DNA of 64,000 nucleotides from Armatimonadota bacterium (GTDB taxonomy: Bacteria > Armatimonadota > Zipacnadia > Zipacnadales > UBA5352): assembly GCA_050942735.1 (NCBI GenBank), contig JBMNNW010000012.1, forward strand, positions 1,053 to 65,052, in the 5' to 3' direction. This document shows, piece after piece, positions 151 through 43,275 of this stretch. The notes below the pieces were generated by a model. That model was not told the DNA's origin. It was given only the letters and a program-made list of their open reading frames with translations, and ran no database searches. Position 1 is the first letter of the stretch, and each line of letters opens with the position of its first letter. The position numbers and the translations under genes are program-made.

Positions 151-166
151 TGGCACGGGAGTTGCC
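151..166 (+). promoter_or_regulatory. sigma54 (-24/-12) promoter of cheA operon
   Basis: TGGCACGGGAGTTGCC: GG-N10-GC with TGGCACG and TTGC consensus cores, 45 nt before the cheA ATG. Confidence 0.8.
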
Positions 167-9155: not shown

Positions 9156-10219
9156 TCCGCGTTCTCGTCGTGGACGACTCGGCGGTGGTGCGGAAGGTGC
9201 TCGCGGAGGAGCTTTCGAGAGCGCCGGACATCGAGGTCGTCGCGACCGCCACCGACCCCTACGTGGCGCGCGACAGGATCCTCGCGCTGCAGCCGGACGT
9301 GCTGACGCTCGACATCGAGATGCCGCGGATGGACGGGCTGACGTTCCTCGGCAGGTTGATGCATCATCGGCCGATGCCCGTGGTCGTGGTCAGCTCGGTC
9401 AGCCCGGAGGGCAGCGAGGCGGCGGTGCGAGCGCTGGAACTCGGCGCGGTGGACGTGGTCTCCAAGCCAGGATCGGCGTTCACCGTCGGGGACATCTCCG
9501 AGCGGCTGATCGGCGCGATTCGCACCGCGGCCGGTGCGAGGGTCGGCCGCCACGAGCGCCCCGAAGGCCGCGAGCCCGATCGCTGCGCCTCGATCCCGCG
9601 CGTTGTGCGCACCACGCACAGAGTCATCGCCATCGGCGCGTCCACCGGCGGCACCACCGCGATCCGGGAGGTGCTCACGCAACTGCCCCGGACGACGCCC
9701 GGCACCGTCATCGTCCTGCATATGCCCGAGCACTTCACCGCCGCGTTCGCGAGGCGGCTCGACGAGCAGTGCGTGATGGAGGTGCGCGAGGCGCGTGACG
9801 GCGACCCCATCGTCCCGGGCGTGGCGCTCATCGCTCCGGGCAATCGGCACATGGTGGTCCGGCGCAGCGGCGCCCGCTACATGGTCGGGCTCAGGGACGC
9901 TCCGCCCGTGCATTACCAGCGCCCGAGCGTTGATGTGCTCTTCCACTCCGCGGCCCGACAGTGCGGGCACAACTGCCTCGCGGTGATCCTCACCGGGATG
10001 GGCGCCGACGGCGCGGCCGGGATGCTCGCCATGCGCCGGGCCGGGGCGCAGACGCTCGCGCAGGATGAGCGGAGCTGCGTCGTCTACGGCATGCCGCGAG
10101 CCGCGGTGGAGATGGAGGCGGTCGATCAGATCGTTCCGCTGCACGAGATCCCCCGGCAGATCATCAGTGCGCTGGCCCGCTCCGCCCGCTCCGCCCGCTC
10201 CGCCCGCTCGCGCGGGTAG
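9152..10219 (+). CDS. cheB: Chemotaxis response regulator methylesterase CheB
   Basis: Receiver VLVVDDS and DVLTLDIEMPRMDG; esterase IGASTGG, HMP, ILTGMGADG. Confidence 0.97.
   Translation: MIRVLVVDDSAVVRKVLAEELSRAPDIEVVATATDPYVARDRILALQPDVLTLDIEMPRMDGLTFLGRLMHHRPMPVVVVSSVSPEGSEAAVRALELGAVDVVSKPGSAFTVGDISERLIGAIRTAAGARVGRHERPEGREPDRCASIPRVVRTTHRVIAIGASTGGTTAIREVLTQLPRTTPGTVIVLHMPEHFTAAFARRLDEQCVMEVREARDGDPIVPGVALIAPGNRHMVVRRSGARYMVGLRDAPPVHYQRPSVDVLFHSAARQCGHNCLAVILTGMGADGAAGMLAMRRAGAQTLAQDERSCVVYGMPRAAVEMEAVDQIVPLHEIPRQIISALARSARSARSARSRG
10175..10210 (+). repeat. 9-bp tandem repeat (GCCCGCTCC)x4 at the 3' end of cheB
   Basis: Copies at 10175, 10184, 10193 and 10202 (last ends in G); encodes ARS x4. 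Confidence 0.9.
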
Positions 10220-10250
10220 CGCTCCGCGCGGAGATCTCCCCGAACGCGGC

Positions 10251-10277
10251 TAAAGCCCGTGTGTAAACGCCCGATAT
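10251..10277 (+). promoter_or_regulatory. sigma28 promoter of flagellin
   Basis: TAAA-N15-CCCGATAT, near-perfect sigma28/SigD consensus. Confidence 0.85.
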
Positions 10278-10497
10278 ACACTTCGGTGCAGGTTCTGTTG
10301 CGCGCCCGCGGCGGTCAGCGCCACGGCCCGAACGAGCCTGCCGAAGTGTCGATCCGGCTCCCCCGTCGCCGGGGCGTCCAGATCGTCGCCGCATCACACA
10401 GGGCTCAGCGGGTGAACCGTCCGGACTTCGCGACGCGAGCCGCATGCCATCCGCCCCGAGCCGCCAGACCCCAACCGGGGAACGAGGAGGACTTCGC

Positions 10498-12015
10498 ATG
10501 TCGCTCACTCGCATCAACCAGAACATCAGCTCCATCAACGCGCAGCGGAACCTCGACAACAACTCCGCCCGCATCGGCCGCTCGATCGAGCGCCTCGCCA
10601 GCGGTCTTCGGATCAACCGCGGCGCGGACGATCCGGCCGGTCTCGTGATCTCCGAGCTGCTCCGCGCGCAGGTCTCGGGGCTCGACGTGGCCGAGCAGAA
10701 CGCGTCGCAGGGGGTGAACCTGATCAAGACCGCCGAAGGGGCGCTCAACGAGGTCTCAGGCCTCCTGCGGCAGATGCGCGACCTCGCGGTGGACGCCTCG
10801 TCGGACTCGAACAAGAACGCCGACGCCCGCGCCGCATTGCAGTCACAGGTGGAGTCGGCGCTCAACACCATCGATGAGATCGCGGTCAACACCAAGTACG
10901 CGGGCCGCTCGCTGCTGGACGGCTCCGCGGGCGCCTCCCGTACGATCCTCGACCCCACGGCCGTCGCCGGGCAGAACCTGACCTCCGTTGAGGGCAACGG
11001 CAACATCTCCGTGAGCGTCAGCACCGCCGCGGAGAAGGCCATCTCCGAGTCGGCCACCAGCGGCGCGGTCGTCGCAGGCAGCGCCGTGGACGGCACCGGC
11101 TCAATCGACCTCGACGGCGGCGAGCTGAAGCTCACCATCAACGGCAAGGCCGTCAAAGCCACCGACGCGATGGGCGGCGGCGACCTGGTCATCGACGGCA
11201 CCACCACCTGGCAGCAGCTCGTGGACAGCATCAACCAGACCGCGTCGCTGCAGGGCGAGGTCACCGCCGAGATCACCGCCGACGGCGAGCTGGCGATCAT
11301 GTCCGCGGAGTTCGGCTCCGACCAGCACGTCTCGGTGCAGTACACCTGGGACAGCGCGGGCAGCGGCTCGGAGGACCTGACGGGGCTGCTGGACGCGTCC
11401 GGCTCGACCTTCGAGGCCGACGCGGGCGTGGACGCGGTGGCCGACGTGGTCTTCGGCGGCGAGGCGCTCGGCGGCGGCAGTGACGTGACCTTCGGCGGCG
11501 GCTCGGGCCTGACGATCAGCCACGCGACCTACGGCTCGATCACCCTCACCGAGGCCGCGGGCACCACGACGGGCGACTACGTGGACGTGATCTCCGCGCA
11601 GGACGGCCAGCTCTCCTTCCAGGTCGGCAGTGAGGCCGGCCAGCAGGCGACCACGACCATCAGCTCGATGAACACCGCCCGCCTCGGCACGACGAGCGCG
11701 CTGGCGGACATCGACATCTCCACGGTGGCCGGGGCGGAGACGGCCCTGACGGTGATCGACGAGGCGATCAACCAGGTCTCCGCGGTGCGCGGCGACCTCG
11801 GCGCATTCCAGGTGAACGAGTTGGAGGCGGAGGCCCGCTCGCTGGCGGTCGCGCGAGAGAACCTCTCCGCCTCGGAGAGTCAGATCCGCGACACGGACTT
11901 CGGGCGCGAGATGGCGGAGTTCACCACCAGCCAGGTGCTGGTGCAGTCGGCGACGGCCTTCCTCTCACAGGCCAACGCGCTGCCGCAGAACGTGCTGCAG
12001 CTCATCCGCGCGTAG
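10498..12015 (+). CDS. fliC: Flagellin
   Basis: N-terminal RINQNISSINAQRNL...LASGLRINRGADDPAGL, C-terminal RGDLGAFQ...SQIRDTDFGREMAEFT...AN..PQNVLQL; GAGGAGG RBS. Confidence 0.97.
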   Translation: MSLTRINQNISSINAQRNLDNNSARIGRSIERLASGLRINRGADDPAGLVISELLRAQVSGLDVAEQNASQGVNLIKTAEGALNEVSGLLRQMRDLAVDASSDSNKNADARAALQSQVESALNTIDEIAVNTKYAGRSLLDGSAGASRTILDPTAVAGQNLTSVEGNGNISVSVSTAAEKAISESATSGAVVAGSAVDGTGSIDLDGGELKLTINGKAVKATDAMGGGDLVIDGTTTWQQLVDSINQTASLQGEVTAEITADGELAIMSAEFGSDQHVSVQYTWDSAGSGSEDLTGLLDASGSTFEADAGVDAVADVVFGGEALGGGSDVTFGGGSGLTISHATYGSITLTEAAGTTTGDYVDVISAQDGQLSFQVGSEAGQQATTTISSMNTARLGTTSALADIDISTVAGAETALTVIDEAINQVSAVRGDLGAFQVNELEAEARSLAVARENLSASESQIRDTDFGREMAEFTTSQVLVQSATAFLSQANALPQNVLQLIRA

Positions 12016-12023
12016 ACGCAACC

Positions 12024-12085
12024 CGCCGGCTGACAGGGAGGGGGGCGCCCCGGCGGGCCCCCCTCACCCCGCCTGTCAGACGGCG
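12024..12085 (+). terminator. Long GC-rich hairpin after fliC (no U-tract; terminator or mRNA-stability element)
   Basis: CGCCGGCTGACAGG/CCTGTCAGACGGCG (1 mismatch) enclosing GAGGGGGG/CCCCCCTC. Confidence 0.55.
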
Positions 12086-12155
12086 TTCGCAGGCCGAGAC
12101 CGCAGCGCACCTGCGTTGACACGATCCGGGCAACCGGCGCACAGGAGGCGTCGCG

Positions 12156-14399
12156 ATGAACATCGGAAGCATGGCGATCAGCGGACTTGTCGCCCGCGAC
12201 ATCGACATCAGCGGAGTCATCACGCAGCTCGCGCAGATCAAGCGTAGGCCCGTGGAGCTGCTCGAGCAGAAGCAGTCGACGCACAGCAGGCGCCTGACGG
12301 CCTTCCAGCAGCTCACCGCGCGATGCCTGGCGCTGGGGACCGCGACCGCCGGGCTGACCGACGGGACGGCCTTCGAGCAGGTGACGGCGCGCAGCGGGGA
12401 CCCGGGGACGATCGCGGTCAGCGCCTCGGCGGGCGCGCCGGTCGGCTCGTACCGGCTGGAGGTCGCGCGGCTTGCACAGAGTCAGAAGGTCTCATCGGGA
12501 GCGGTGGCGAGCACGACGGAGGCGCTGGGCCACTCGGGGGAGTTTCTGCTCAACGGCAGGGTCGTCGCGGTGGAGGCGGGCTTCACGCTCCGCGACATCC
12601 GCGACGCGATCAACGCCGCGGGCGCGGGCGTCAGCGCCTCGATCCTCACCGGCTCGGAGACGGAGCACTACCTGCGGCTGACCAGTCTCAGCTCCGGTCT
12701 GCAGGGCGCGATGCAGATGGTGGATGTCTCAGGCGTGCTCGAAGCGCTGGGCGTGCAGGACGGAGCCGTGAGCACGAAGCACGCGCTCGCGGACGGGATG
12801 GCCTCGGACGCTCTGGCGGAGAGGTTCACGCCGGTGGGCGAGGCGCTGGGGCTCGGGGCCGCGCCGGCGGGCGTCATCAGCGTCAACGGCGTGCACGTCT
12901 CCATCGACCTCTCCGCCGACAGCCTCGAGGAGATTGCCGCGTCGATCGGCGCGGTGGAGGGCGTCGGCGCGACGGTGGAGGAAGTTGAGGCGGGCGGGGT
13001 GACGCGCTATCAGCTTCGGATCACCGGCGAGAGCGGAGCGCCCGCGCTCGTTGACGATGGGAACGTGCTGCTCGCGCTGGGCGTGCTCGAGCGCGGGCTC
13101 GCGCATGAGGTGGACGCCGCGCAGGATGCGCTCTTCACGATCGACGGCGTAGCGATGAGCCGTCCGACGAACGCGGTTGACGACGCGATCGACAACGTCC
13201 AACTGCAGCTTCTGCGGGAGACCGATGGCGCGCCGGTGACAGTGAGCATCGCCGCGGACACGGCGGCGACGGTGGAGGCGGTGCAGAGGTTCGTGGACGC
13301 GTACAACGCAGTCATCCGGTTCATCAGCGAGCATCAGAGCTTCGACACGGACGCGGGCACGGGCGGGTTGTTCCTCGGCTCACCGGCGGTCCTGCAGCTT
13401 GAGACGCAGTTGCGCGAGCAGATCAGCAGGCTGGTGAACACGCTCGGCGGCGAACTGACGCTGGGGTCGCAGGCGGGGCTTCGCTTCAACACCGGCGACG
13501 AGATCGTCTTCGACAGCCTCGCGCTGCTCGACAGACTGCAGAGCGATCCGGAGGGCCTCAGGCGCCTCTTCGGCACCCGCACCGCGACGTCGGGCGAGGT
13601 CGAGGTATTCGACTACTCCTCCGCGACCGCGGACTCGGGGCCGGGCGGCTGGGCGGTGGAGATCACCCAGGCGGCCACGCGGCCGACCGCCATCGGCGCG
13701 ACGCTCGCGGCAGGAATCGCGATGGATGAGACGCTGACGGTCAACGGTGTCTCGGTCTCACTGACTGCGGGCATGAGCGCCGAGGAGGCGGCCGACGCGC
13801 TCAACGCGGCCCTCATCGGCGAGCGGATGGAGATCACCGCGGCCGTGGAGGGCGACCGGCTGGTGCTGCGGCACGAACTGTGGGGGAGCCGGCATTCGAT
13901 CGCGATCAGCTCATCGCTCGACGAGGGCTCGGGCGGCACCGACCTCGGCGGCTCGGTCGCGGGCGAGGCACGGGTATATGAGGGGCAGGACGTGGTGGGG
14001 ACGATCCGCGGCGAGGCGGCCACCGGGACCGGGCGGCTGCTCACCGGCGGGCGAGGTACCCCCGCCGAGGGGCTGCGGCTGGTCATCGCGGCGACTGAGG
14101 CGGGGCCGGTCGGGGAGGTGCGTGTCAGCCGGGGGATCGCGGCGCGGATGAGCGCGCTGATCGAGCGAGCCACCGACAGCCGGACGGGCGCGCTGACACG
14201 AGCGGCGGAGGGGCAGTCCGGCGAGATCGCCGCGATCGACGAGCAGATCGCGGCGGTGGAGGCCGACGTGGACCGCTACATCGAGCGGCTCCAGGTTGAC
14301 TTCGCGCTGATGGAGAGCAAGATGTCGCGTTCGCTGGCGCTGCTCGACTGGATGGAGAATCAGATCGAGTACCTTCCCGGCGCTCAGCGCAGGAGATAG
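12156..14399 (+). CDS. fliD: Flagellar filament cap protein FliD
   Basis: N-terminal SGLVARDIDISGVITQL, AQDALFTIDGV..RPTNAVDDAI, FVDAYNAV, C-terminal coiled coil. Confidence 0.92.
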   Translation: MNIGSMAISGLVARDIDISGVITQLAQIKRRPVELLEQKQSTHSRRLTAFQQLTARCLALGTATAGLTDGTAFEQVTARSGDPGTIAVSASAGAPVGSYRLEVARLAQSQKVSSGAVASTTEALGHSGEFLLNGRVVAVEAGFTLRDIRDAINAAGAGVSASILTGSETEHYLRLTSLSSGLQGAMQMVDVSGVLEALGVQDGAVSTKHALADGMASDALAERFTPVGEALGLGAAPAGVISVNGVHVSIDLSADSLEEIAASIGAVEGVGATVEEVEAGGVTRYQLRITGESGAPALVDDGNVLLALGVLERGLAHEVDAAQDALFTIDGVAMSRPTNAVDDAIDNVQLQLLRETDGAPVTVSIAADTAATVEAVQRFVDAYNAVIRFISEHQSFDTDAGTGGLFLGSPAVLQLETQLREQISRLVNTLGGELTLGSQAGLRFNTGDEIVFDSLALLDRLQSDPEGLRRLFGTRTATSGEVEVFDYSSATADSGPGGWAVEITQAATRPTAIGATLAAGIAMDETLTVNGVSVSLTAGMSAEEAADALNAALIGERMEITAAVEGDRLVLRHELWGSRHSIAISSSLDEGSGGTDLGGSVAGEARVYEGQDVVGTIRGEAATGTGRLLTGGRGTPAEGLRLVIAATEAGPVGEVRVSRGIAARMSALIERATDSRTGALTRAAEGQSGEIAAIDEQIAAVEADVDRYIERLQVDFALMESKMSRSLALLDWMENQIEYLPGAQRRR

Positions 14400-14404
14400 C
14401 CCGG

Positions 14405-14420
14405 TGGCACGTGACTTGCA
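14405..14420 (+). promoter_or_regulatory. sigma54 promoter of fliS
   Basis: TGGCACGTGACTTGCA, perfect GG-N10-GC, starting 6 nt after the fliD stop. Confidence 0.85.
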
Positions 14421-14452
14421 TCATGACATACCGAGGGACAGGAGGGTCGCGG

Positions 14453-14857
14453 ATGGCCTCAAAGTATGCCCCTGAGGCGTACCAGGAGATGCAGGTGCTT
14501 GGGTCGGACCCCCGGCAGCTCGTGGTGCTGCTGTGCCAGGCGCTTGTGCGCTATCTGATGCGCGCGGATGATGCGATCAGGCGGCGCGACTGGGAGACGA
14601 AGTCGGCGGCGCTCTGCCGGGCTCAGCAGATCTTCTCCGAGCTGATCTGCTCGCTCGACGAAGAGATCGGTGGGGAGCTGGCCGAGCAACTGCGGGCGCT
14701 CTACGTGCACCTGCAGCGGCAGCTCGTCGATGTTGACCTGCAGGATGACCTCGACAGACTCGCGTACGTCAGTGAGATGGCCGCGAGGCTCGTCAATGCC
14801 TGGGAGGAGGCTCTTGAACGATGCCGGGAGCAGGAGCTGGGAAGCAGGGCGGCGTAG
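14453..14857 (+). CDS. fliS: Flagellin chaperone FliS
   Basis: AYQEMQVLGSDPRQLVVLL, AQQIFSELICSLDEEIGGELAEQLRALY, LVNAWEE. Confidence 0.9.
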   Translation: MASKYAPEAYQEMQVLGSDPRQLVVLLCQALVRYLMRADDAIRRRDWETKSAALCRAQQIFSELICSLDEEIGGELAEQLRALYVHLQRQLVDVDLQDDLDRLAYVSEMAARLVNAWEEALERCREQELGSRAA

Positions 14858-14865
14858 CCGACGCG

Positions 14866-15186
14866 ATGACGCCTGCGGAGGCGGTCAGGGAGCTCGGCCG
14901 CGTGGAGCGGGAGGCGATCGCCGCGGGGGACTGGGATGCGCTGGATGGGATCCTCGAGCGTCAGAAGGCGATGTGGCGGGAGCTGGTCGAGAGCGCGGAG
15001 CCTGACCGCATCTCCGGGACCGCGGATGCGGCCGGAGAGGCGCTCATGGCGCTCTACGAGGTGCGTCGGCGCAATCACGCGCTGATCGAGCAGAGCTTGC
15101 GGGAGATGCGCCGCAGGCTCACCGTCGCGCACGCGGGCTCCGGGGCGCGCAGCGCCTACCAGCTCACCTCCGGGCGGGCGGCGTAG
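14866..15186 (+). CDS. FlgN/FliT-like flagellar export chaperone
   Basis: Short all-helical protein (EREAIAAGDWDALDGILERQ) after fliS, ending GSGARSAY. Confidence 0.55.
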   Translation: MTPAEAVRELGRVEREAIAAGDWDALDGILERQKAMWRELVESAEPDRISGTADAAGEALMALYEVRRRNHALIEQSLREMRRRLTVAHAGSGARSAYQLTSGRAA

Positions 15187-15211
15187 GCGGAGAGCAGGCG
15201 CCCGGCCTCGG

Positions 15212-16402
15212 CTACGCTTCGAGCATCAGGTCGCCGGGGCGGAGAGTGTTGCCGTGGGCCATCAGCAGGCCGCGCTGGATGGCGTTGTCGAGCTGGCGGA
15301 GGTTGCCCGGCCAGCTCTGCCGCCGCAGCAGCTCCACCGCCTCCGGGGAGATCGCATCGGGACCGCGCGCGTGGCGGCGGAGGTGCTTGCGCAGGAAGAA
15401 GCGCGCGAACGGCTCGATGTCCTCCGGGCGCTCGCGCAACGGCGGGAGGCTCAGCGGCATGACCGCCAGCCGGTAGTAAAGGTCCTCCCGGAAGCGCCCC
15501 TCCTCCACCGCGCGACGAAGGTCCTGGTTGGTCGCGCAGATCAGCCGCACGTCCACCTCGATCGGCTTCGTCCCACCCAGTCGCGTGAATGTCAGGTCCT
15601 GGGCGAACCGCAGCAGCTTCACCTGATTGTCCATGCTCATCTCGCCGATCTCATCAAGGAAGATCGTCCCCCCGTCGGCGACCTCGCAGAGCCCCTTCTT
15701 CGCCTGCGTGGCCGAGGTGAACGCGCCCTTCTCGTGACCGAAGAGCTCGCTCGTGAGGAGTTGCTCGGGCAGGGAGCCGCAGTTGATCGGGACGAACGTC
15801 CTCTCCGCCCGATCGCCCATGAGATGGATTGCGCGGGCGAGGAAGTCCTTGCCGGTGCCGGTCTCTCCCTCGATGAGCACCGGGGTGGGTGTGCCGGCCA
15901 CGCGCGCGGCGGCGGCGTAAGCCCGTCTCACCCGTGAGCTTCGACTCATCACGTGCTCGAAGCCGTGGCGCTCGCGAAGAACCTGCCAGAGGTACCCCGC
16001 CTCATCGCCCGGCGCGGTGTCTCCGCCGGTGCCCAGCACCTCTGAGGCACGGGACAGCAGCTCCTCGCGGGCGAAGGGCTTCTGAAGGTAGTGCGCTGCG
16101 CGCAGCCCGAGCGCCTCGACGGCCGTCTCGAAGCTCGGGTGCGCGGTGATGATGATCGCGGGCGCGTTGACGCCCTTCGCCCGGAGGTGGCCGAGCAGTT
16201 CGACGCCGTCGGCGTCCGGGAGCATGCGATCGAGGATCAGCAGATCGGGCGGGCGGTCTCCGATGGCCTCCGCCAGCGCTGAGGCGCCATCCGCAGCGGT
16301 GCGCAGCTCGCAGTCAAGTTCGCCGAGGGTTCGGCCGACGGTCGCGAGCATCTCCGGGTCGTCGTCAACGATGAGCACGGTGGGCCTGTCGGCCTCTGAC
16401 AC
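15212..16402 (-). CDS. sigma54-dependent response regulator (receiver + AAA+), lacking the C-terminal HTH
   Basis: Receiver LIVDDD, DRMLP, KPF; Walker A GETGTGK; GAFTSA loop; Walker B IFLDEI; REDLYYRL; WPGNLRQL; the protein ends shortly after sensor II. Confidence 0.93.
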   Translation of the reverse strand: MSEADRPTVLIVDDDPEMLATVGRTLGELDCELRTAADGASALAEAIGDRPPDLLILDRMLPDADGVELLGHLRAKGVNAPAIIITAHPSFETAVEALGLRAAHYLQKPFAREELLSRASEVLGTGGDTAPGDEAGYLWQVLRERHGFEHVMSRSSRVRRAYAAAARVAGTPTPVLIEGETGTGKDFLARAIHLMGDRAERTFVPINCGSLPEQLLTSELFGHEKGAFTSATQAKKGLCEVADGGTIFLDEIGEMSMDNQVKLLRFAQDLTFTRLGGTKPIEVDVRLICATNQDLRRAVEEGRFREDLYYRLAVMPLSLPPLRERPEDIEPFARFFLRKHLRRHARGPDAISPEAVELLRRQSWPGNLRQLDNAIQRGLLMAHGNTLRPGDLMLEA

Positions 16403-16436
16403 GATGATGGCGTCCCTTCGGTGCGGCGGGGTGAGT

Positions 16437-17216
16437 TCAGGAGTTCAGACGCGTGTTGAGCGCGGCGCGCAGCCGCGCGATCGCCTGGGTGTGAATCTGA
16501 CAGATGCGCGATTCGGTCACGTCGAGCACCAGGCCGATCTCACGCATCGTCAACTCCTCGTGGTAGTAAAGGCTGATGACCATCCGCTCGCGCTCTGACA
16601 GTTCGCCGATGCACTCGACGAGGAGGCGGCGCATCTCGGCGCGGTCGGCGACCGCGTGCGGGAGCCACTCGGGGCGTTCGGCGTCAATGCTCGCGTTGGT
16701 GGGGGCATGCGCATCGCCCGAGGACTCCGAGAGGCTCTCGAGAGAGACAAGCGCGGCCGTGGAGGCGTCGCGCAGCAGCTTGCGGTACTCGGCGGCCGTG
16801 AGGCCCAGCCGCTCGATGATCTCCGCCTCATCGGGCTGGCGGCCAAGCTGCTGACGTAGTTCGGCGACGGCCGCCTCAAGCTCGCGGTAGCGCCCGCGCA
16901 GGCCGCGCGGCGCCGGGTCCATCCTGCGCAACTCATCGAGGATCGCCCCGCGCATGAGCGTACATGCGTAGGTGCGGAAGCTCGCGCCGCGCCCCGGATC
17001 GTAGCGATCGACGGCCCTGATCAGCCCGATCATGCCCGCGCTGACAAGATCCTCGCGGTCAACCTGCGCGGGCAGACCTGAGGCGACGCGGTCCACCTCG
17101 TAACGCACGAGGTCAACGTTCTCGGTGATCAGGTGCTCGCGTTCAACCGGCGACAATCCGGCGCTCTCAGCGGTCTGAAACACGGGTGAACCCCCTGATC
17201 GGGTGATGCGACTCAT
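16437..17216 (-). CDS. fliA: RNA polymerase sigma28 factor FliA/WhiG
   Basis: DLVSAGMIGLIRAVDRYD, FRTYA, RGAILDELR, region 4 LSERERMVISLYYHEELTMREIGLVLDVTESRICQIH. Confidence 0.93.
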   Translation of the reverse strand: MSRITRSGGSPVFQTAESAGLSPVEREHLITENVDLVRYEVDRVASGLPAQVDREDLVSAGMIGLIRAVDRYDPGRGASFRTYACTLMRGAILDELRRMDPAPRGLRGRYRELEAAVAELRQQLGRQPDEAEIIERLGLTAAEYRKLLRDASTAALVSLESLSESSGDAHAPTNASIDAERPEWLPHAVADRAEMRRLLVECIGELSERERMVISLYYHEELTMREIGLVLDVTESRICQIHTQAIARLRAALNTRLNS

Positions 17217-17394
17217 GATCGACGAGGTGGATGCAGATGGGCCTGCCTCGCGCCGGCGACGAGGACCTCGTTGAGGGCATCTTGAGTGAAATGTCACGAG
17301 AACTCCGCAAGTTCATTCCTCGTAAGATGATCCCGCACCTCCAACTCGTGCCGGTTCTTCGTGAGATAAATGCGTGCGCCGGGGCGTCTTCGCA

Positions 17395-18480
17395 TCAGAT
17401 CCCCCCGGATGCTCGCGCTCGCTCGCGGCGGCTTCGGCGTCGCCGGTAGACGGCGGCGAAGATCTCAGCCACCACGGCGTAGAGCTTCTCCGGCACCGCA
17501 CCGCCGAGTTCGCAGGAGCGGAAGAGGCTGCGCGCGACCGGCGGGTTCTCGATGACCTCGATGCCGTGCATGCGGCCGAGGCGGATGATCTCCCGCGCGA
17601 CGGCACGCTGTCCCTTCGCGACGACCTTCGGCGCGGTCATGCTCACCGGATCGTATCTCAGCGCGACGGCGAAGTGCGTCGGGTTGGTCACGACCACGTC
17701 GGCCCGCGCCATCTCCGGGGAGATGCCCTGGGCCTGCATCGAGCGGCGAAGCTCTCTGCGCTTTGCGCGGATCTGCGGGTCGCCGTCGCTCTCCCTGAGG
17801 TCGCGTTTGAGTTCATGGCGGGTCATGCGAAGCTGCTTCTCATGGTCGTACCACTCGAAGGCGTAGTCGGCCGCGCCGATCACCAGCAGCAGCCCCATCG
17901 ACTTGACGAGCATCTCCGCGGCGATCGCGCCCATCGCCGCCATCATCGGCCGAAGCTGCATGTCGGCCATCAGCAGTATCTGCTCGGTGTGAGCGCGCAA
18001 CACGAGCGCGGCGACCAGCCCGACCGCGCAGACCTTCAGGATGCTCTTGAGCGTCGCGACGGCCCCCCGTGCGCTGAAGAGGCGCTTGAAGCCGTTGACC
18101 GGATTGAGCCGCGACCAGTCGGGCTTGATCGCCGAGGGGGCGATGAGGCCGCCGGTCTGCGCGGAGGCGGCGACGACCGTCCCGACGATCACGGCGAGCA
18201 TGATCGGCCCGAGCAGCATCGCCATCATCGGCAGCAGACTCGCCCACGCGGCCATCACACCGTCCGCGTCGATCTCACGCGTCCCCGCGATCCGCAGCCA
18301 GTGCTCGGTGAGGTCCTGCAGACGCCGCAGCATCCCCGTGCCTCCGAAGCGCCACGCGAGGTAGATCGCGAGCAACCCGAAGGCGCGGGTCAGGTCAACG
18401 CTGGTCGCGACCCGGCCCTTCTCCCGCGCCTGACGGCGCTTGCGCGGCGTTGGTTGCTCCGTGCGTTCCTCGGTCGCCAT
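17395..18480 (-). CDS. flhB: Flagellar export protein FlhB
   Basis: ERTEQPTPRKRRQAREKG, LNPVNGFKRLFS, autocleavage NPTH. Confidence 0.97.
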   Translation of the reverse strand: MATEERTEQPTPRKRRQAREKGRVATSVDLTRAFGLLAIYLAWRFGGTGMLRRLQDLTEHWLRIAGTREIDADGVMAAWASLLPMMAMLLGPIMLAVIVGTVVAASAQTGGLIAPSAIKPDWSRLNPVNGFKRLFSARGAVATLKSILKVCAVGLVAALVLRAHTEQILLMADMQLRPMMAAMGAIAAEMLVKSMGLLLVIGAADYAFEWYDHEKQLRMTRHELKRDLRESDGDPQIRAKRRELRRSMQAQGISPEMARADVVVTNPTHFAVALRYDPVSMTAPKVVAKGQRAVAREIIRLGRMHGIEVIENPPVARSLFRSCELGGAVPEKLYAVVAEIFAAVYRRRRSRRERARASGGI

Positions 18481-19285: not shown

Positions 19286-21344
19286 GCGGGCACCTCCACC
19301 GTCTCCGGCTCCAGCGCGATGGCCCCGCGCGCCCGCAAAGTCAACTCGGGCACGATCTCGGCGTGGGAGAGCACGGTCACGTCGGGGAAGCTGCGGCGGA
19401 CCAGTGCGCGCAGGTGCCGGCGGATCGGCGGCGAGGTAAGGATGACCGGGGCACTCCCCCGAGCCCCCAGCTCCTCCGCCGCCGACTGCACCGAGCGCAG
19501 CATGGCGTGGAGCGCCGCCGGGTCGAGCAGGCAGCTCTGCCCCTGAGGAGTCTCGACGATCGATTCTGCGACCAGCGCCTCAAGTTCGGGGTCGAGCACG
19601 TACGCGGCGAGCGTTTCTCCGTCGCGAAGCTGCTCACAGATAGTGCGGGCGAGGGCCGCGCGCACGTACTCCGCCGCCGCCATCAGATCGCCCGAGGCCC
19701 GCAGGCCGTCCGCGAGGGCCTCGACGATCGTGGACATATCCGCGATCGGCACGCCCTCATCCAGCAGCGCCTGCAGCACCTGATGGAGCTGGCCGACCGA
19801 CGCCATCTCCGGGATCAGCTCGTTGACCGCCGCCGGGTTTGTCTGCCGCAGCTCATCGAGCATCACCTGCACGTCCTGGCGGCTGACCAGCTCGGGTGCG
19901 TGCGCCTTTATCAGCTCGCTCAGGTGCGTCGCCAGCACGACCTCCGGCTCGACGACGGTGTATCCCCGCGCCTCCGCGAGCGTCCGCTGCTCGGCATCGA
20001 TCCACCACGCCGGCAGCCCGAATGCGGGCTCGATGATGCTGGTGCCCGGGAGTTCGTCGAGGCCCTCCCGGGTGGCGATCGCCATCATCCGCGACGGCTG
20101 CAGGCCACCCTCGGCGATGCGCGCTCCGCGCAGCCGCACCACGTAGGCGTTAGGGCGCAAAGTCATGTCGTCCTGGATGCGCACCGGCGGGACCAGCAAC
20201 CCCATCTCCGATGCGATCTGCGCGCGGATCGCCCCGATCCGCTGCAGCAGCGAGCCGCGGCGGCTTTCATCGACCAGCTCGATCAACCCGAATCCGATCT
20301 GCACCGCGAGTCTGTCCGGCGCCGAGACGGCGGCCGTCCGATCATCCGGCGGTGTGTCCTCGGCGGCCTCCCTCGCGGCCTCATCCTCGTGACCACCGGC
20401 CCGGCGGACGAGCCACGCGAGGACTCCCGCGGTGGTGCCGACCGCGAGGAAGCTCAGCGTGGGCAGGCCCGGCACCATCGCGAAGACCACCAGCATGATC
20501 CCGACGATTCCGACTGCCCGCGGCTGGGCGAGCACCTGCGTGATCACGTCGGTGCCGAGGTCGTGCTCGGAGGCCGAACGCGTGACGGCGAGGCCGGTCG
20601 CGGTGGAGATCAGCAGCGCCGGGATCTGACTGACGAGGCCATCGCCGACCGTGAGCAGCGCGTAACGCTGGAGCGCCTCTCTCGGCTCAAGCGACAGCCG
20701 CGTCATGCCGATGATGAGGCCGGCGATGATGTTGATGACAACGATGATGATCGCGGCGATGGCGTCGCCGCGCACGAACTTGGTGGCGCCGTCCATCGCG
20801 CCGAAGAAGTCTGCCTCGCGTTCGATGGTGCGGCGGCGCTCGCGGGCCTCGTCCTCGGTGACCAACCCCGCCGAGAGGTCCGCATCGATCGCCATCTGCT
20901 TGCCGGGCATCTCGTCGAGGGTGAAGCGCGCCGCCACCTCCGCCACGCGCTGCGAGCCGCTGGTGATGACCACGAACTGAATGATCACGAGGATGAGGAA
21001 GAGGATGAGCCCGACCACAGGTCGCCGCCGACGACGAAGTTGCCGAAGGCCTCGATGACCTTCCCGGCGTGGGCGTTGAGGAGGATCAGACGCGTCGAGG
21101 AGATATTCAGCGCGAGGCGGAAGAGCGTCGCCACCAGCAGCACCGACGGGAAGACCGCGAACTCCAGCGGCTCCCGCACGTACATCGCCACCAGCAGGAT
21201 GCACAATGCGACGCCGAAGTTGACCGTCAGCAGCAGGTCAAGCACCGCGTCGGGCAGCGGAATCAGCATCATCGCCACGAGGCCGATGATCCCGACCGCG
21301 ATCATCGCGTCGGTCTGCCGCAGCGCACGCCCGAGGATCGACAC
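19282..21344 (-). pseudogene. flhA: FlhA with a single-base frameshift near 21018-21019
   Basis: N-terminal frame reads ...VIEAFGNFVVGGDL then continues out of frame; conserved VVGLILFLILVIIQFVVIT...RFTLDEMPGKQM is in the next frame; adding one G (CTG GTG) restores FlhA. Confidence 0.88.
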
Positions 21345-21346
21345 GA

Positions 21347-22054
21347 TCAGCCACCCGCCCCCGCGCGTAGTCTCCCCGCGATCCGCGCCCGGATGCTCGC
21401 GGCCGCACGACCGTAGAACTCCTGCGCTCGCCCGGGCGTGATCTGCAGCAGTGCGGCGATCTCCGGGAAGCTCAGCCCGTCCTCGAAGTACAGCGTCAGG
21501 AGCCGCCGCTGATCCTCCGGCAGCGCCGAGACGGCCCCCACCAGCGCGCCGCCGCCTCCCTCGTGCGGCCGACCGGGCAGCAGCAACTCGGGACTGACGC
21601 CGAAGACCAGCCCGGCCTCGGCGAAGCGCTCGGCAAGCCGCCCCTCGTCGAGGCCGAGGGCGCGCGCGACCTCGCGATCCTCGCTCACGTCCGGGCAGCA
21701 TTCCGACAGCGCCGAGCACAGCGGCGCGATGCGGCACGGCCACGCCGCCTCGAACCACGAGCTTGACAGCGCCCACGCGCGCATGCCGCCAACCACCCGG
21801 CCCATCACATCGCTCTCAGGCGTCAGCTCTCCGGTGCGGCCGTCAGCAAGCTCCAGCACGGTCACGAGGCCCTGGCTCATCAGCAGACCCTCGTCGAGCC
21901 ACGGTGAGATGCGCGCGCCCAGCCGCCCCATCGCAACCCGCACAAGCGCCGTCAGCGGGCGGAGGGCCTCGCAGTCACGGGTGACGATGAGCGGCTCTCC
22001 GCCACCCTCGCCGGAACTTCGCTCGCCTCGCCTCTGAGTTGTGCCTCGTGCCAT
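21347..22054 (-). CDS. Degenerate FliA-like sigma factor paralog
   Basis: Region-4 HTH LPEDQRRLLTLYFEDGLSFPEIAALLQIT; N-terminal part collinear with FliA region 2 but missing its conserved motifs. Confidence 0.65.
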   Translation of the reverse strand: MARGTTQRRGERSSGEGGGEPLIVTRDCEALRPLTALVRVAMGRLGARISPWLDEGLLMSQGLVTVLELADGRTGELTPESDVMGRVVGGMRAWALSSSWFEAAWPCRIAPLCSALSECCPDVSEDREVARALGLDEGRLAERFAEAGLVFGVSPELLLPGRPHEGGGGALVGAVSALPEDQRRLLTLYFEDGLSFPEIAALLQITPGRAQEFYGRAAASIRARIAGRLRAGAGG

Positions 22055-22092
22055 CTCGACTCTCCCACCCGGTCCGCTCAGATGCCCGCCCG

Positions 22093-22362
22093 TCATTGCA
22101 CGTAGCGCGGGATGTTCGTCAGAAGCTCGGTCGTGAACCCGGCCAGCGAGCGAAGCATCCACGAACCGCAGGCCAGCACCGTCAGGCCGATCGCCACGAT
22201 CTTCGGGACGAATGTGAGCGTCATCTCCTGCACCTGCGTCACCGCCTGCACAATCCCCACCAACACGCCGATCAGCAGGGCAACGCCCAGCACCGGCCCG
22301 CCGAGCTTGAGCGTCGCGATGAACATGTCCCGCGCGAGGTTCACGTAGATGTCCGTCGGCAC
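22093..22362 (-). CDS. fliQ: Flagellar export protein FliQ
   Basis: GILVGIVQAVTQVQEMTLTFVPK-type motif (GVLVGIVQAVTQVQEMTLTFVPK). Confidence 0.95.
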   Translation of the reverse strand: MPTDIYVNLARDMFIATLKLGGPVLGVALLIGVLVGIVQAVTQVQEMTLTFVPKIVAIGLTVLACGSWMLRSLAGFTTELLTNIPRYVQ

Positions 22363-26762: not shown

Positions 26763-26778
26763 TGCAAGGCCCGTGCCG
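26763..26778 (-). promoter_or_regulatory. sigma54 promoter motif upstream of flbD-motAB
   Basis: CGGCACGGGCCTTGCA on the minus strand (GG-N10-GC), 8 nt after the flgE stop; predicted TSS falls only about 4 nt before the flbD ATG. Confidence 0.7.
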
Positions 26779-26785
26779 CCGGGCC

Positions 26786-28006
26786 CTACTGCATGAGCCG
26801 GACGACCTCGTCGAGCATCTGATTCGCGGTGGAGATCACCCGCGTTGAGGCCTGGAAGCCCCGCTGGGTCGTGATCATGTCCACAAACGCACGCGTCAGG
26901 TCCACGTTGGACATCTCGAGGTTGCGGGCTACCAAGCTCCCGCGCCCCCCGGTGTTCGAGGCCCCGACCGCCGCGGCGCCGGAGGCGGGTGCTTCGGTGA
27001 AGAGATTGCCGCCGATGCGCTGCAGGCCGCCGGGGTTGGCGAACGATGCCATCGCGATCTGCCCGAGCGCCCGCGTGCGGCCGTCGGAGTACTGTCCCTC
27101 AACCACGCCGCCGTCGCCGATCCCCACGCCTGTCAGAGACGAGGCGGGGCGCCCGTCCTGCGAATGCACCACCACCGAGTGCGCCTGCGCCAGCGCCGTG
27201 ACTGAGGCGAGGTCGAGGGTGACGCTCTGCGGTGAGGCCGCGCCGTTGGTCAGCGCGACGTCGAGGTTGAGCACTCCCCCGGCGCTGAGCCGCCCGGCGG
27301 TGTCGAACTGCAGGGTCCCGGTGGCGGTGCTGCCCTCGCAGAGGGCCTCGACCTGCCACTCGTTGACATTCGCGGTGTTGGTGAATGTGATCTCCACGGG
27401 GTGCATCTCTCCGAGCGAGTCGTAGATGGAGATGGTGCTGGCGACCGAGTCGCCGACGGCGGCGGTGGCGTCGAGGTTGCCCCTCAGCAGCGCGCCGCCG
27501 GTGGCCTCAGGTGGCGCGAGTTCGCCGATGTTGAAGCTCAGCGCTGAGATCGGCCCGGTCGCGTTCACCCCGCCGCTTGCGTCGGCCATCCAGCCCATCA
27601 CTTTCATCCCGCTGGCCGCGGCCACCAGGGTGTTGGTGTCATCGAGTGAGAATGAGCCGTCGCGGGAGTAGTACTGTCCCTGCCCGTCGCCGAGCACGAA
27701 CATGCCCTGTCCCTCGATCGCGCAGTCAAGCGGCTGACCGGTCGGCTCCAGCGACCCCTGCGTGTGCTGGACGGTGACCGACCCGAGTGAGACGCCCGAC
27801 CCGACCTGCATCGGATTCGCGCCGCCGATCCCGACGTCACTGCCCGATCGCCCGCCCTGCAGCGTCGCGTAGAGCGCGTCCTGGAAGGTCGTCCGGCCCT
27901 CCTTGTATGCCACCGTGTTGGCGTTGGCGATGTTGTTGCCGACGACGTCAAGTCGGCTCTGAAACGCCACGGTCCCCGACAGTCCTGAGAACAAAGCCCG
28001 GTTCAT
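26786..28006 (-). CDS. flgE: Flagellar hook protein FlgE
   Basis: MNRALFSGLSG, VVGNNIANANTVAYK, LEMSNVDLTRAFVDMITTQRGFQA. Confidence 0.95.
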   Translation of the reverse strand: MNRALFSGLSGTVAFQSRLDVVGNNIANANTVAYKEGRTTFQDALYATLQGGRSGSDVGIGGANPMQVGSGVSLGSVTVQHTQGSLEPTGQPLDCAIEGQGMFVLGDGQGQYYSRDGSFSLDDTNTLVAAASGMKVMGWMADASGGVNATGPISALSFNIGELAPPEATGGALLRGNLDATAAVGDSVASTISIYDSLGEMHPVEITFTNTANVNEWQVEALCEGSTATGTLQFDTAGRLSAGGVLNLDVALTNGAASPQSVTLDLASVTALAQAHSVVVHSQDGRPASSLTGVGIGDGGVVEGQYSDGRTRALGQIAMASFANPGGLQRIGGNLFTEAPASGAAAVGASNTGGRGSLVARNLEMSNVDLTRAFVDMITTQRGFQASTRVISTANQMLDEVVRLMQ

Positions 28007-29277
28007 CGATGGTGCTCCTTTCGCTGTGTCACGGTCGCCACGTCTCGGGCGAATCGCGCGGTGGGTCGCGGTGGATCGTGGGGCAGGCGAAGCGCAACTT
28101 CGGTGCCGCGCGGGCACGCGTGATGGAGCGTCAGCGTGCCGCGATGGGCCACCGCGATCCCCCGCGCGACCGTCAGCCCCAGCCCCTGGTGGAGCGCAGG
28201 GTGAGTGGTGAAGAAGGGCTCGGTGGCCCGTCTCCGCACCTCTGCGGTCATGCCCGGCCCGTCATCGATCACGCGGATCTCGCTTCGACGCCCATCGCCG
28301 GCGGTGCGCAGCAGCACGCGTCCCTCAGGCCCCATCACCTGCAGCGCGTTGAAGACGAGGTTCACGACGCACTCACCGAGCTGACCCGCGTCGCCCCAGG
28401 CCGGGGCGATGGCGGCGAGATCCGTCTCGACGCGCACCTCGCGAAGCCCCGGCCAGTGTCCGCATACTCGTCTGACCAGCCCCGCGACCTCGTCGGCAAT
28501 TCTGCTGAGGTCGAGCGCGCGCATCTCCGCGGCCACCGGACCAGCGGTGAACGCCTGCATCGAGCGCATCAACTCCGCCCCTTCGGCGGTGGAGCGCTCG
28601 ATCCGTCCGAGCAACTCCACGATGTCATCCGATGACGCCCTCTCCCTGAGCAACTGCGCGTTGCCGAGGATCGCGGCGAAGACGTTGCCCAGCGCGTGTG
28701 AGACGCCGAACGCCAGGTTGCCGACCGTCCGGAGATGCTCGGGCGCCCCATCCGCGCCGTCCTCGGGCGCGACGGCCAGCGTCGCCGCCGCCGAGAGCGC
28801 AAGGTCGGGCAGCAGATGCATCCGACCGCAGGGGCGCCCCTCGCCCCGTGCGCCGATTGCCAGCAGCCCGAGCGGGCCCGTCCGCCTCTCGCTGTGCAGC
28901 GGCACGGCGGCCCACGAGCGCACCTCGAGATCGCGCAACCTCAGCCGCAGAGCCGACCACGGCTCGCGCCAGCCGTCCGAGCTCTGACAGGCGCGCTCGA
29001 ACACGCGCGCGGCCTGCGGGCCCAGGTCCCAGCGCGCGTGCGCGGTGCCCGCTCCATCGCGCACGGCCAACGTCGCGCTGAGCGCCTGCGGGTACTCCGT
29101 CGGTCTGAGCATCACCGCGGCGTCGCAGCAGAGCAGCTCGATGGCGCTCTCGACCACCGACTCCGTCGCCCTCGTGCGTCCCGTGAGCGCGGCCCGCGTG
29201 AGACACTCGAGCGCGCGCGCGCGAATCCCGGGCTCGTCTGTCACTGCAGTTCGTCCGACGAGTGTGTCGATCGCCAC
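28003..29277 (-). CDS. Soluble sensor histidine kinase with atypical H-box, GAF-like N-terminus
   Basis: HisKA VSHALGNVFAAILGNAQLL; N-box NLVFNA; DDGPGM; EPFFTT; GLGL; no TM segment seen; GGAGG RBS plus GTG at 29277. Confidence 0.85.
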   Translation of the reverse strand: MAIDTLVGRTAVTDEPGIRARALECLTRAALTGRTRATESVVESAIELLCCDAAVMLRPTEYPQALSATLAVRDGAGTAHARWDLGPQAARVFERACQSSDGWREPWSALRLRLRDLEVRSWAAVPLHSERRTGPLGLLAIGARGEGRPCGRMHLLPDLALSAAATLAVAPEDGADGAPEHLRTVGNLAFGVSHALGNVFAAILGNAQLLRERASSDDIVELLGRIERSTAEGAELMRSMQAFTAGPVAAEMRALDLSRIADEVAGLVRRVCGHWPGLREVRVETDLAAIAPAWGDAGQLGECVVNLVFNALQVMGPEGRVLLRTAGDGRRSEIRVIDDGPGMTAEVRRRATEPFFTTHPALHQGLGLTVARGIAVAHRGTLTLHHACPRGTEVALRLPHDPPRPTARFARDVATVTQRKEHHR

Positions 29278-29290
29278 GATCCCGACCTCC

Positions 29291-29677
29291 TCAGTTGCCG
29301 ACCGCGAGTACATCTCCGGGAGACAGCCGGGTCTCCCCAACGACGAGGCGGCATGCTCCGCCCGACAGCTCCACGCCCTCGACCGGGCCGGCTACGATCT
29401 CTCCCGTCGCCGGGTCTGTCCACCGGACGGTGCGCCCGATCAGATCGACCGCGTCGCCGATCGATGCGTTGGCGAGCAAAGCGCCGATCTTCTGCAACTC
29501 GGCGACGGACTGCAGTTGCGCGAGCTGGCTCATGAACTCCGAGGGATCCATCGGACTCAGCGGATCCTGAGCCTTGAGTTGCGCGACCAGCAGCGTCATG
29601 AAATCATCCACGCCCCCCAGCGACTGCGCGCCTGCGGCGGCGCTGGAGCCCGACGTCGTCGCGGCTACCCGCATCAT
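29291..29677 (-). CDS. flgD: Hook capping protein FlgD (short form)
   Basis: DDFMTLLVAQLKAQDPLSPMDPSEFMSQLAQ. Confidence 0.93.
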   Translation of the reverse strand: MMRVAATTSGSSAAAGAQSLGGVDDFMTLLVAQLKAQDPLSPMDPSEFMSQLAQLQSVAELQKIGALLANASIGDAVDLIGRTVRWTDPATGEIVAGPVEGVELSGGACRLVVGETRLSPGDVLAVGN

Positions 29678-37652: not shown

Positions 37653-37668
37653 GGCAATGTCCGTGCCG
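37653..37668 (-). promoter_or_regulatory. sigma54 promoter of the flgB operon
   Basis: CGGCACGGACATTGCC on the minus strand (GG-N10-GC), 7 nt after the rpoN stop. Confidence 0.8.
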
Positions 37669-39021: not shown

Positions 39022-39068
39022 CTCGGGGGACTTCCTTTCGCGCCGCCTCGAATCTCTTCGTCGGAGGT

Positions 39069-39095
39069 ACTTCGGCGCCGCAGGCGGCAACTTGA
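39069..39095 (-). promoter_or_regulatory. Putative sigma28-type promoter upstream of rpoN
   Basis: Minus strand TCAA-N15-GCCGAAGT; exact sigma28 spacing. Confidence 0.45.
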
Positions 39096-39225
39096 GTCCT
39101 CAACGTGATGGCGCTGACATCACCCCCGCCGACAGAACCGGCCGGCGATGCGCCCTCGGAGGTGGATCGGAAGCGGTGCGCGAAGGGGAGTTGCGCTCGT
39201 TCACAGCAGCCCGCGGAGGCATCTC

Positions 39226-43259: not shown

Positions 43260-43275
43260 TGCAATCGGCGTACCA
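43260..43275 (-). promoter_or_regulatory. sigma54 promoter of fliG-fliM
   Basis: TGGTACGCCGATTGCA on the minus strand (GG-N10-GC). Confidence 0.8.

Follow-up and report, generated by a model that had tools for sequence, protein, structure and literature searches.

A sigma-54 activator without a helix-turn-helix domain as the probable sole activator of a flagellar gene cluster in an uncultured Armatimonadota bacterium

Can a sigma-54 activator that has no DNA-binding domain serve the flagellar genes that surround it, and is the lack of this domain a genuine and long-standing property of the protein? This question is raised by a gene located at 15212..16402 on the minus strand of a 64,000-nt stretch of DNA (the window) that corresponds to positions 1,053 to 65,052 of contig JBMNNW010000012.1 from an Armatimonadota bacterium (assembly GCA_050942735.1). 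The genome is a 5.1-Mb metagenome-assembled genome (MAG) of 209 contigs that is 92.8% complete. The source organism is uncultured, and the DNA of the window occurs in bioreactor and biogas fermenter metagenomes. Our analysis indicates that the gene product is probably a working FlgR-like regulator, reached by convergence, which would be the sole activator of the sole sigma-54 of this organism, would be dedicated to the flagellar/chemotaxis cluster that encodes it and would act without an enhancer.

The gene starts with GTG, ends with a stop codon at 15212..15214 and encodes a protein of 396 amino acids, to which the cluster representative P0001 is 100% identical. All of the features of the protein described here lie on the minus strand. 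A receiver (REC) domain (residues 9-118, 16049..16378; Pfam PF00072 Response_reg, 4e-24, 85.3 bits) is connected by a variable, Gly/Pro/Asp-rich linker (GTGGDTAPGDEAG, 15995..16033), which shows little conservation among orthologs, to a sigma-54 interaction AAA+ domain (residues 152-317, 15452..15949; Pfam PF00158 Sigma54_activat, 2e-66, 223.1 bits against a cut-off of 20.2). The acidic pair D13/D14, the phospho-acceptor D58, T86 and K108 are all present in the receiver, in the motifs VDDD (12-15), LILD (containing D58), IIITAH (83-88) and LQKPF (containing K108). The AAA+ motifs comprise Walker A (GETGTGKD, 179-186), Walker B (IFLDEIGE, 247-254), the arginine-finger region (FREDLYYRL, 304-312) and sensor II (WPGNLRQL, 364-371), and the L1 loop reads GAFTSA (residues 226-231, 15710..15727), with Ser rather than Gly at its fifth position. 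The AAA+ lid (AAA_lid_14, Pfam PF25601, 7e-18) occupies residues 323-393 (15224..15436), and just three residues remain after it: the C-terminus reads ...RGLLMAHGNTLRPGDLMLEA*. The helix-turn-helix (HTH) domain HTH_8 was not found in the protein by Pfam, even at E<=1.

By its domain (PF00158), Walker A/B motifs, arginine finger and sensor II, the protein is a sigma-54 activator, for which activity in open-complex formation is predicted. It is not a classical NtrC-type response regulator, because HTH_8 is missing, although a receiver with its phospho-acceptor is present; it can be placed in type Ic of Francke et al. 2011 (activator domain present, DNA-binding domain absent). None of the curated NCBIfam cut-offs (NtrC, AtoC and similar models) was reached by the protein. 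With the NCBIfam FlgR model (NF049963) it scored 267.7 bits against a cut-off of 750, and eleven other models, including NtrC and AtoC, ranked higher. The protein is thus outside the epsilonproteobacterial FlgR family, and its resemblance to FlgR is functional only. Its named homologs come from Armatimonadota MAGs. The closest solved structures are those of Aquifex aeolicus NtrC1 and NtrC4 (1NY5, 4L4U, 3DZD), which align end to end over the receiver, AAA+ domain and lid (2e-83 for NtrC1, 1NY5). However, native NtrC1 and NtrC4 have an HTH, bind enhancers and contain the loop GAFTGA, and the receiver-AAA+ linker of NtrC1 is charged and rich in Lys, Glu and Arg, in contrast to the variable, Gly/Pro-rich linker of the Armatimonadota protein.

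Because the MAG is fragmented into 209 contigs, we considered whether the missing HTH could be an artefact of assembly or gene calling. The stop codon and the junction were seen without indels in contigs from three other samples: a contig from sample X2 spans 14300-17400 with one substitution, and contigs from samples X4 and X5 span 15071-15299 and 14936-15653, respectively. These contigs exclude an assembly artefact as the source of the short end. Furthermore, five more genomes of the genus and 16 more metagenomic proteins share this end point, and the convergent flgN-like gene (14821..15186, plus strand; a weak FlgN match in Pfam) lies only 25 nt beyond the stop codon. A tblastn search with the HTH tails of eight orthologs yielded nothing below E 0.05 in this locus or in the same-genus loci, and no remnant in the 3' flanks of the genus; an extra spacer of ~190 nt in one congener (G004) bears no resemblance to an HTH. 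When the whole genome was searched in six frames for HTH_8, no match exceeded the cut-off, and one sub-threshold match was located on another contig. The probability that the missing domain is an artefact is therefore negligible.

The age of the truncation could be placed by comparison with relatives. All six same-genus genomes with a full-length ortholog stop at the same place (...DLMLE[A/G/R] or ...HLML), whereas nine of nine orthologs from other genera of the family (g2, g3, g4, g5, g7 and g8) extend further, into a variable linker and a conserved HTH of the form ...LPDLxTVExEHIxRVW...VLGISPRTLxRRL..., which together comprise ~60 amino acids. The gene order, in which the activator gene converges on flgN-like, fliS and fliD, is kept in four sister genera (g3, g4, g5 and g7). 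An alignment of 12 orthologous 3' ends at the DNA level revealed a clean deletion of ~180 nt, so that the 25-nt spacer (15187..15211) between the activator gene and the flgN-like gene marks the absence of the coding sequence for the linker and HTH found in the sister genera. Since the orthologs in every other genus of the family that was examined carry the HTH, the loss is derived. The ratio of non-synonymous to synonymous substitutions (dN/dS) was 0.15-0.24 at a dS of 0.6-1.4 among the HTH-less congeners, no higher than among the HTH-bearing orthologs, and such low ratios at this divergence indicate that the short form has long been kept by selection. As judged from these sequences, a clean deletion removed the HTH in the ancestor of the genus, and the loss is old, genus-wide and under purifying selection rather than a recent accident.

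On a broader scale, 17 metagenomic proteins, including that of the window, form an all-HTH-less clade with 96% SH-aLRT support, and the members of this clade are distinguished from their HTH-bearing sisters by fixed differences at only four positions (205, 206, 210 and 391). A tree of 112 homologs requires at least 13 changes of HTH state, or at least 8 if only well-supported branches are counted; some of the losses at single tips may be gene-calling errors in metagenomes, but this does not apply to the multi-member HTH-less clades (17, 11, 7, 3 and 3 rows). Because only 3 of 127 proteins were HTH-less in a broad sample of representatives at 50% identity, frequent HTH loss is a trait of the clade to which this activator belongs. 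The earlier note on this DNA had described an intact receiver and AAA+ domain without an HTH, no frameshifted HTH hidden downstream, a gap of 25 nt to a convergent gene ending at 15186 and a GAFTSA loop with its key Thr retained, all of which was borne out by the domain, motif and tail searches. It had also looked to homologs in related taxa for the same end point and had regarded an HTH in close relatives as the sign of a recent truncation. The end point is indeed shared by all six members of the genus, but orthologs in every other genus of the family that was examined carry the HTH; the domain is thus present in fairly close relatives, and yet the truncation, being genus-wide and under purifying selection, is not recent.

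If the activator is genuine, which promoters could it serve? A six-frame search of the genome for Sigma54_activat identified one real match, namely this activator (225.6 bits); three others scored 27-33 bits, the level of generic AAA+ proteins. Most of the relatives in the same taxonomic order likewise contain a single match to the activator protein. The only sigma-54 gene of the genome, rpoN (37675..39090, minus strand), is located at the head of the same flagellar cluster, the content of which was read from Pfam matches of ~40 neighbouring open reading frames (ORFs). On the minus strand, the cluster consists of rpoN, flgB, flgC, fliE, fliF, fliH, fliI, a lytic transglycosylase gene, fliK, a histidine kinase gene, flgE, flbD, motA, motB, fliL, fliN, fliO, fliP, fliQ, a gene for a small sigma70-region-4 protein, flhA, fliR, flhB, fliA and, at the very end, the activator gene. 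The genes fliG-fliM are located upstream of rpoN, and the convergent side contains cheA, cheW, a methyl-accepting chemotaxis protein (MCP) gene, cheR, cheX, cheB, flagellin, fliD, fliS and the flgN-like gene. The sigma-28 gene fliA (16437..17297, minus strand; Pfam Sigma70_r2/r3/r4) is located 34 nt upstream of the activator gene. Contigs from RNA-seq that are identical to the window cover the activator gene and the junction with fliA, one of them (16332..16578) bridging the junction, and the two genes are probably co-transcribed. A simple scan of 14300..17600 for sigma-70 promoters and terminators found nothing.

We searched for -24/-12 sites by match to TGGCACG-N4-TTGCW and counted five. The site between fliD and fliS (TGGCACGTGACTTGCA, 14405..14420, plus strand) is a perfect match and is present with the same spacing in this locus and in 10 of the 10 loci of relatives that have fliS at this position. 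The other sites are located between rpoN and flgB (CGGCACGGACATTGCC, 37653..37668, minus strand; conserved in 6 of 7 contigs), before fliG-fliM (TGGTACGCCGATTGCA, 43260..43275, minus strand; 5 of 5 contigs), after flgE and 8 nt before flbD-motA-motB-fliL-fliN (CGGCACGGGCCTTGCA, 26763..26778, minus strand; 5 of 8 contigs) and 45 nt before cheA (TGGCACGGGAGTTGCC, 151..166, plus strand), the comparison with relatives covering the first four of these sites. All five are immediately upstream of, and co-oriented with, the fliS, flgB, fliG, flbD-motA and cheA operons. As the raw number of matches in the window is not above chance, the case for these sites rests on their position and conservation. A sixth, weak and doubtful site before flgE (28093..28108, minus strand) was not counted, because it overlaps the coding end of the kinase gene and spells the conserved peptide GTEVAL. 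The corresponding sequence is perfect in two congeners; its likeness to a promoter may be a coincidence of coding, or the sequence may serve both uses.

When the genome was scanned with a position weight matrix (PWM) of the sites of this family, the fliS site was the top match, and five of the eight best matches in 5.1 Mb were on the contig of the window, upstream of and co-oriented with operons, although the matrix was built in part from the sites of this genome and the result is partly circular. The best matches outside the flagellar contig were taken as chance, because most of them are inside ORFs and the adjoining genes, judged by eye, look non-flagellar (glucan phosphorylase, a CdaA-like protein, a glycosyltransferase and a sulfatase). 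In this locus and those of the relatives, a search of the regions before rpoN, the kinase gene, fliA, fliF and flhA revealed no -24/-12 site, and before fliK and fliP there were just sub-threshold matches with three mismatches in one or two genomes. Contig C103 holds a second flagellar locus (~10000..17400) with flgG, flgA, a possible flgH, flgI, a flgJ-like gene, flgK and flgL, in which no -24/-12 site of >=13 bits was found; the presence of L- and P-ring genes there suggests a diderm envelope. For flagellin, a sigma-28-type element (TAAA-N15-CCCGATAT, 10251..10277, plus strand) was read by eye ~170 nt before the ORF. Flagellin would thus belong to a late tier downstream of fliA.

Two further features of the region were noticed. 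A DUF4838 gene (39148..41211, plus strand) lies between fliM and rpoN in this genome only, rpoN directly following fliM in the relatives, and a gene for an SLH-domain protein with a collagen-like Gly-X-Y stretch (43359..45236, minus strand) is located directly upstream of the fliG promoter.

A candidate for the cognate, FlgS-like kinase of the activator is also encoded in the cluster. The histidine kinase gene just before flgE (28003..29340, minus strand) encodes a GAF-like N-terminus and HATPase_c (Pfam), is syntenic in eight of eight contigs and has an H-box (SHxLGN) with an invariant His as well as conserved N, G1, F and G2 boxes; it is likely to be the partner of the activator. On the model of Helicobacter pylori FlgR, which activates transcription from solution without a DNA-binding domain (PMC3930126), we infer phosphotransfer, ring assembly and enhancer independence as follows. 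The kinase would phosphorylate D58 of the activator, and the phosphorylated receiver would allow or drive the assembly of the AAA+ ring. Lacking a DNA-binding domain, the ring would meet closed complexes of the sigma-54 holoenzyme from solution at the -24/-12 promoters of flgB, fliG, flbD-motA, fliS and cheA, where the GAFTSA loop would touch region I of sigma-54 and ATP hydrolysis would open the promoter. FliA, produced from a transcript shared with the activator, may then drive flagellin from its sigma-28 promoter. The suggestion made in the earlier note that this is a dedicated flagellar activator thus gains support from the fact that the genome has a single Sigma54_activat gene, that its single rpoN belongs to the same flagellar cluster and that flagellar and chemotaxis operons have conserved -24/-12 promoters. 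The note also took it as established that such truncated activators act from solution, which is true of H. pylori FlgR (PMC3930126) and of type Ic activators (PMC3162934).

Might the truncated protein instead be brought to DNA by a partner protein, as FleT is with FleQ? The sigma70-region-4 HTH protein encoded between fliQ and flhA (21347..22162, minus strand) lies in the cluster and would be the obvious candidate, and the HTH of the activator is under selection in the HTH-bearing relatives, which suggests that DNA targeting has some value. However, there is no second AAA+ activator in the genome with which mixed rings could be formed, only four fixed substitutions accompany the loss of the HTH, and the region-4 protein occurs equally in HTH-bearing and HTH-less relatives (at the same place and with 40-57% identity) and is lost, or nearly gone, in one HTH-less genome (G003). 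Its conservation in the HTH-bearing relatives also led us to rule it out as compensation for the lost HTH. Moreover, a search upstream of the promoters revealed no shared dyad. This search, for dyads of 4- to 6-mers (spacer of 0-14) and plain 6- to 8-mers, covered 250 nt of upstream sequence for each of 11 sigma-54 promoters of HTH-bearing and 19 of HTH-less genomes, and no dyad with half-sites of >=5 nt was common to more than 3 of the 11 promoters of the HTH-bearing relatives. With so crude a method, such small sets and upstream sequences that are mostly coding, the HTH-bearing relatives may still have an enhancer. Recruitment by a partner is therefore rather improbable, and a ring acting from solution is the reading that we prefer.

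The substitution in the L1 loop raises a different question, namely whether the protein contacts sigma-54 at all. GAFTSA was found in 20 of 20 orthologs from the genomes of relatives, irrespective of the presence of the HTH, and in 113 of the best 120 database matches, a search that favours sequences sharing words with the query. It is therefore a signature of the clade that is independent of the truncation. In 160 loops of an unbiased set of 150 representatives, the fifth position was occupied by G in 119, D in 26, S in 10, H in 3 and N in 2. In the broad sample, 1 of 98 proteins with G and 2 of 29 with another residue at this position were HTH-less, counts that are too few to support a tie between the loop and HTH loss. 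In the literature that we searched, no paper was found for the string 'GAFTSA' or for the combination of Armatimonadetes, flagellar and sigma-54.

Changes in the loop motif can abolish activity (Francke et al., PMC3162934), and if the Gly-to-Ser change disabled the contact, as in TyrR, HupR and NtrX, the protein would be cut off from sigma-54 and would act as an ATPase or phosphate sink. Against this, the critical F and T are retained. Ser at the fifth position was listed as 'putative functional' and Asp occupies the same position in the functional FlgR of Campylobacter and other epsilonproteobacteria, where it is the only activator (Francke et al., PMC3162934); S and D also account for 10 and 26 of the 160 loops, respectively. 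In Clostridiales, further natural variants of the loop are regarded as functional (PMC6615313). In addition, a protein without this contact would leave rpoN and a set of conserved -24/-12 promoters without any activator. A loss of sigma-54 contact is thus very improbable, and the loop is better read as that of a working activator.

The sigma-54 of this organism is itself divergent in region I: the N-terminal 80 residues of RpoN reached 22.9 bits with Sigma54_AID, just under the cut-off of 23.8, and where a Gln/Leu-rich motif would usually stand, its family has a conserved VNxQLIVRSELLELP. One could speculate that the clade-wide Ser at position 5 and the divergent region I are together an adaptation to enhancer-independent engagement, convergent with the Asp of FlgR, and part of a one-activator, flagella-only circuit in which the HTH is expendable and has hence been lost at least 8 times. 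We regard this extension as a tentative and rather unlikely one.

A further complication is provided by flhA, which is split by a frameshift near 21015 (20985..21300), such that positions 2-91 and 91-655 of the FHIPEP profile fall in two ORFs. The same letters, without an indel, are present in contigs of samples X1 and X2 and of a slightly different strain in X4, while FlhA is one intact ORF of 684-745 amino acids in seven relatives. If the lesion is real, the activator could be the intact-looking part of a decaying flagellar regulon that has no working output and is heading for loss. However, every other flagellar gene that was examined is intact, and the pairwise dN/dS values between the activator of this genome and those of its congeners (0.17-0.24) do not exceed the values among the congeners themselves. 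The locus is also matched by RNA contigs, and a frameshift in low-depth short-read contigs can be a systematic error. The loss of the HTH is moreover shared with five congeners, and flhA is intact in all three of those examined, so that the loss predates the lesion and is independent of it; the dating of the loss is therefore unaffected, being common to congeners with an intact flhA. We consider the decay of the regulon improbable, although less so than recruitment by a partner, and retain a working activator as the preferred reading.

Several points nevertheless weigh against a working, sole and enhancer-independent activator. The flagellar system of this species may be impaired or non-functional owing to the frameshift in flhA. 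The HTH-bearing relatives show a dN/dS of 0.42 for the HTH and 0.28 for the core, that is, relaxed but still selected; the HTH therefore has some function where it is kept, and the HTH-less form may be weaker. As the genome is 92.8% complete, a second activator or a separate HTH protein may be encoded on the missing DNA. The RNA run was low in depth and may include DNA, and the PWM scan shares the circularity noted above. To our knowledge, Ser at the fifth position of the loop has never been tested experimentally.

HTH-less sigma-54 activators are already known in a few lineages, with which the Armatimonadota protein can be compared. Like H. pylori FlgR, it combines a receiver and an AAA+ domain, has no DNA-binding domain and is the only sigma-54 activator of a genome in which it is associated with flagellar genes; the kinase of H. 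pylori FlgR, FlgS, is cytoplasmic. It also shares with the epsilonproteobacterial FlgR proteins a residue other than Gly at position 5 of the loop, D in FlgR and S in the Armatimonadota activator (PMC3162934). It differs from H. pylori FlgR in belonging to another family and another phylum, in that the HTH loss can be dated, the domain being retained in the other genera of the family, and in that -24/-12 sites are also found before early genes (the fliG and flgB-fliF operons) and cheA. The FlgR of Campylobacter jejuni is the only activator of the flagellar genes and does not require its C-terminal domain for activation, a situation that recalls the HTH-bearing sister orthologs with their less constrained HTH (0.42 versus 0.28); in C. 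jejuni, however, the domain is kept, whereas the activator of the window has none. The repeated losses suggest that the HTH is dispensable in the Armatimonadota HTH-bearing orthologs as well. Chlamydia CtcC has the same architecture of a receiver and an AAA+ domain without a DNA-binding domain (PMC3162934) but is not flagellar. Rhodobacter sphaeroides FleT also has no DNA-binding domain (PMC3162934), but it has no receiver and works with a second activator, FleQ, which has no counterpart in this genome.

To the few lineages in which such activators are known (Helicobacter FlgR, Chlamydia CtcC and Rhodobacter FleT), this locus adds an independent case in an uncultured and poorly studied phylum, with the loss of the HTH placed on the tree at the base of one genus. 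Since the orthologs occupy corresponding positions in the sister genera and losses recur across the clade, nature has supplied matched pairs with and without the HTH that have only four other fixed differences, and these could be used to gauge the worth of an enhancer-binding domain in a genome with a single activator and only a few promoters. The clade also supplies a natural GAFTSA variant of the loop for the study of sigma-54 contact. For annotation, the locus points to a compact flagellar hierarchy in Armatimonadota, in which sigma-54 and its activator would serve the basal body, motor, chaperone and chemotaxis operons and sigma-28 would then serve flagellin. If the circuit of one activator devoted to flagella alone is true, the sister genera with and without the HTH would constitute a natural series for measuring the contribution of the enhancer-binding domain.

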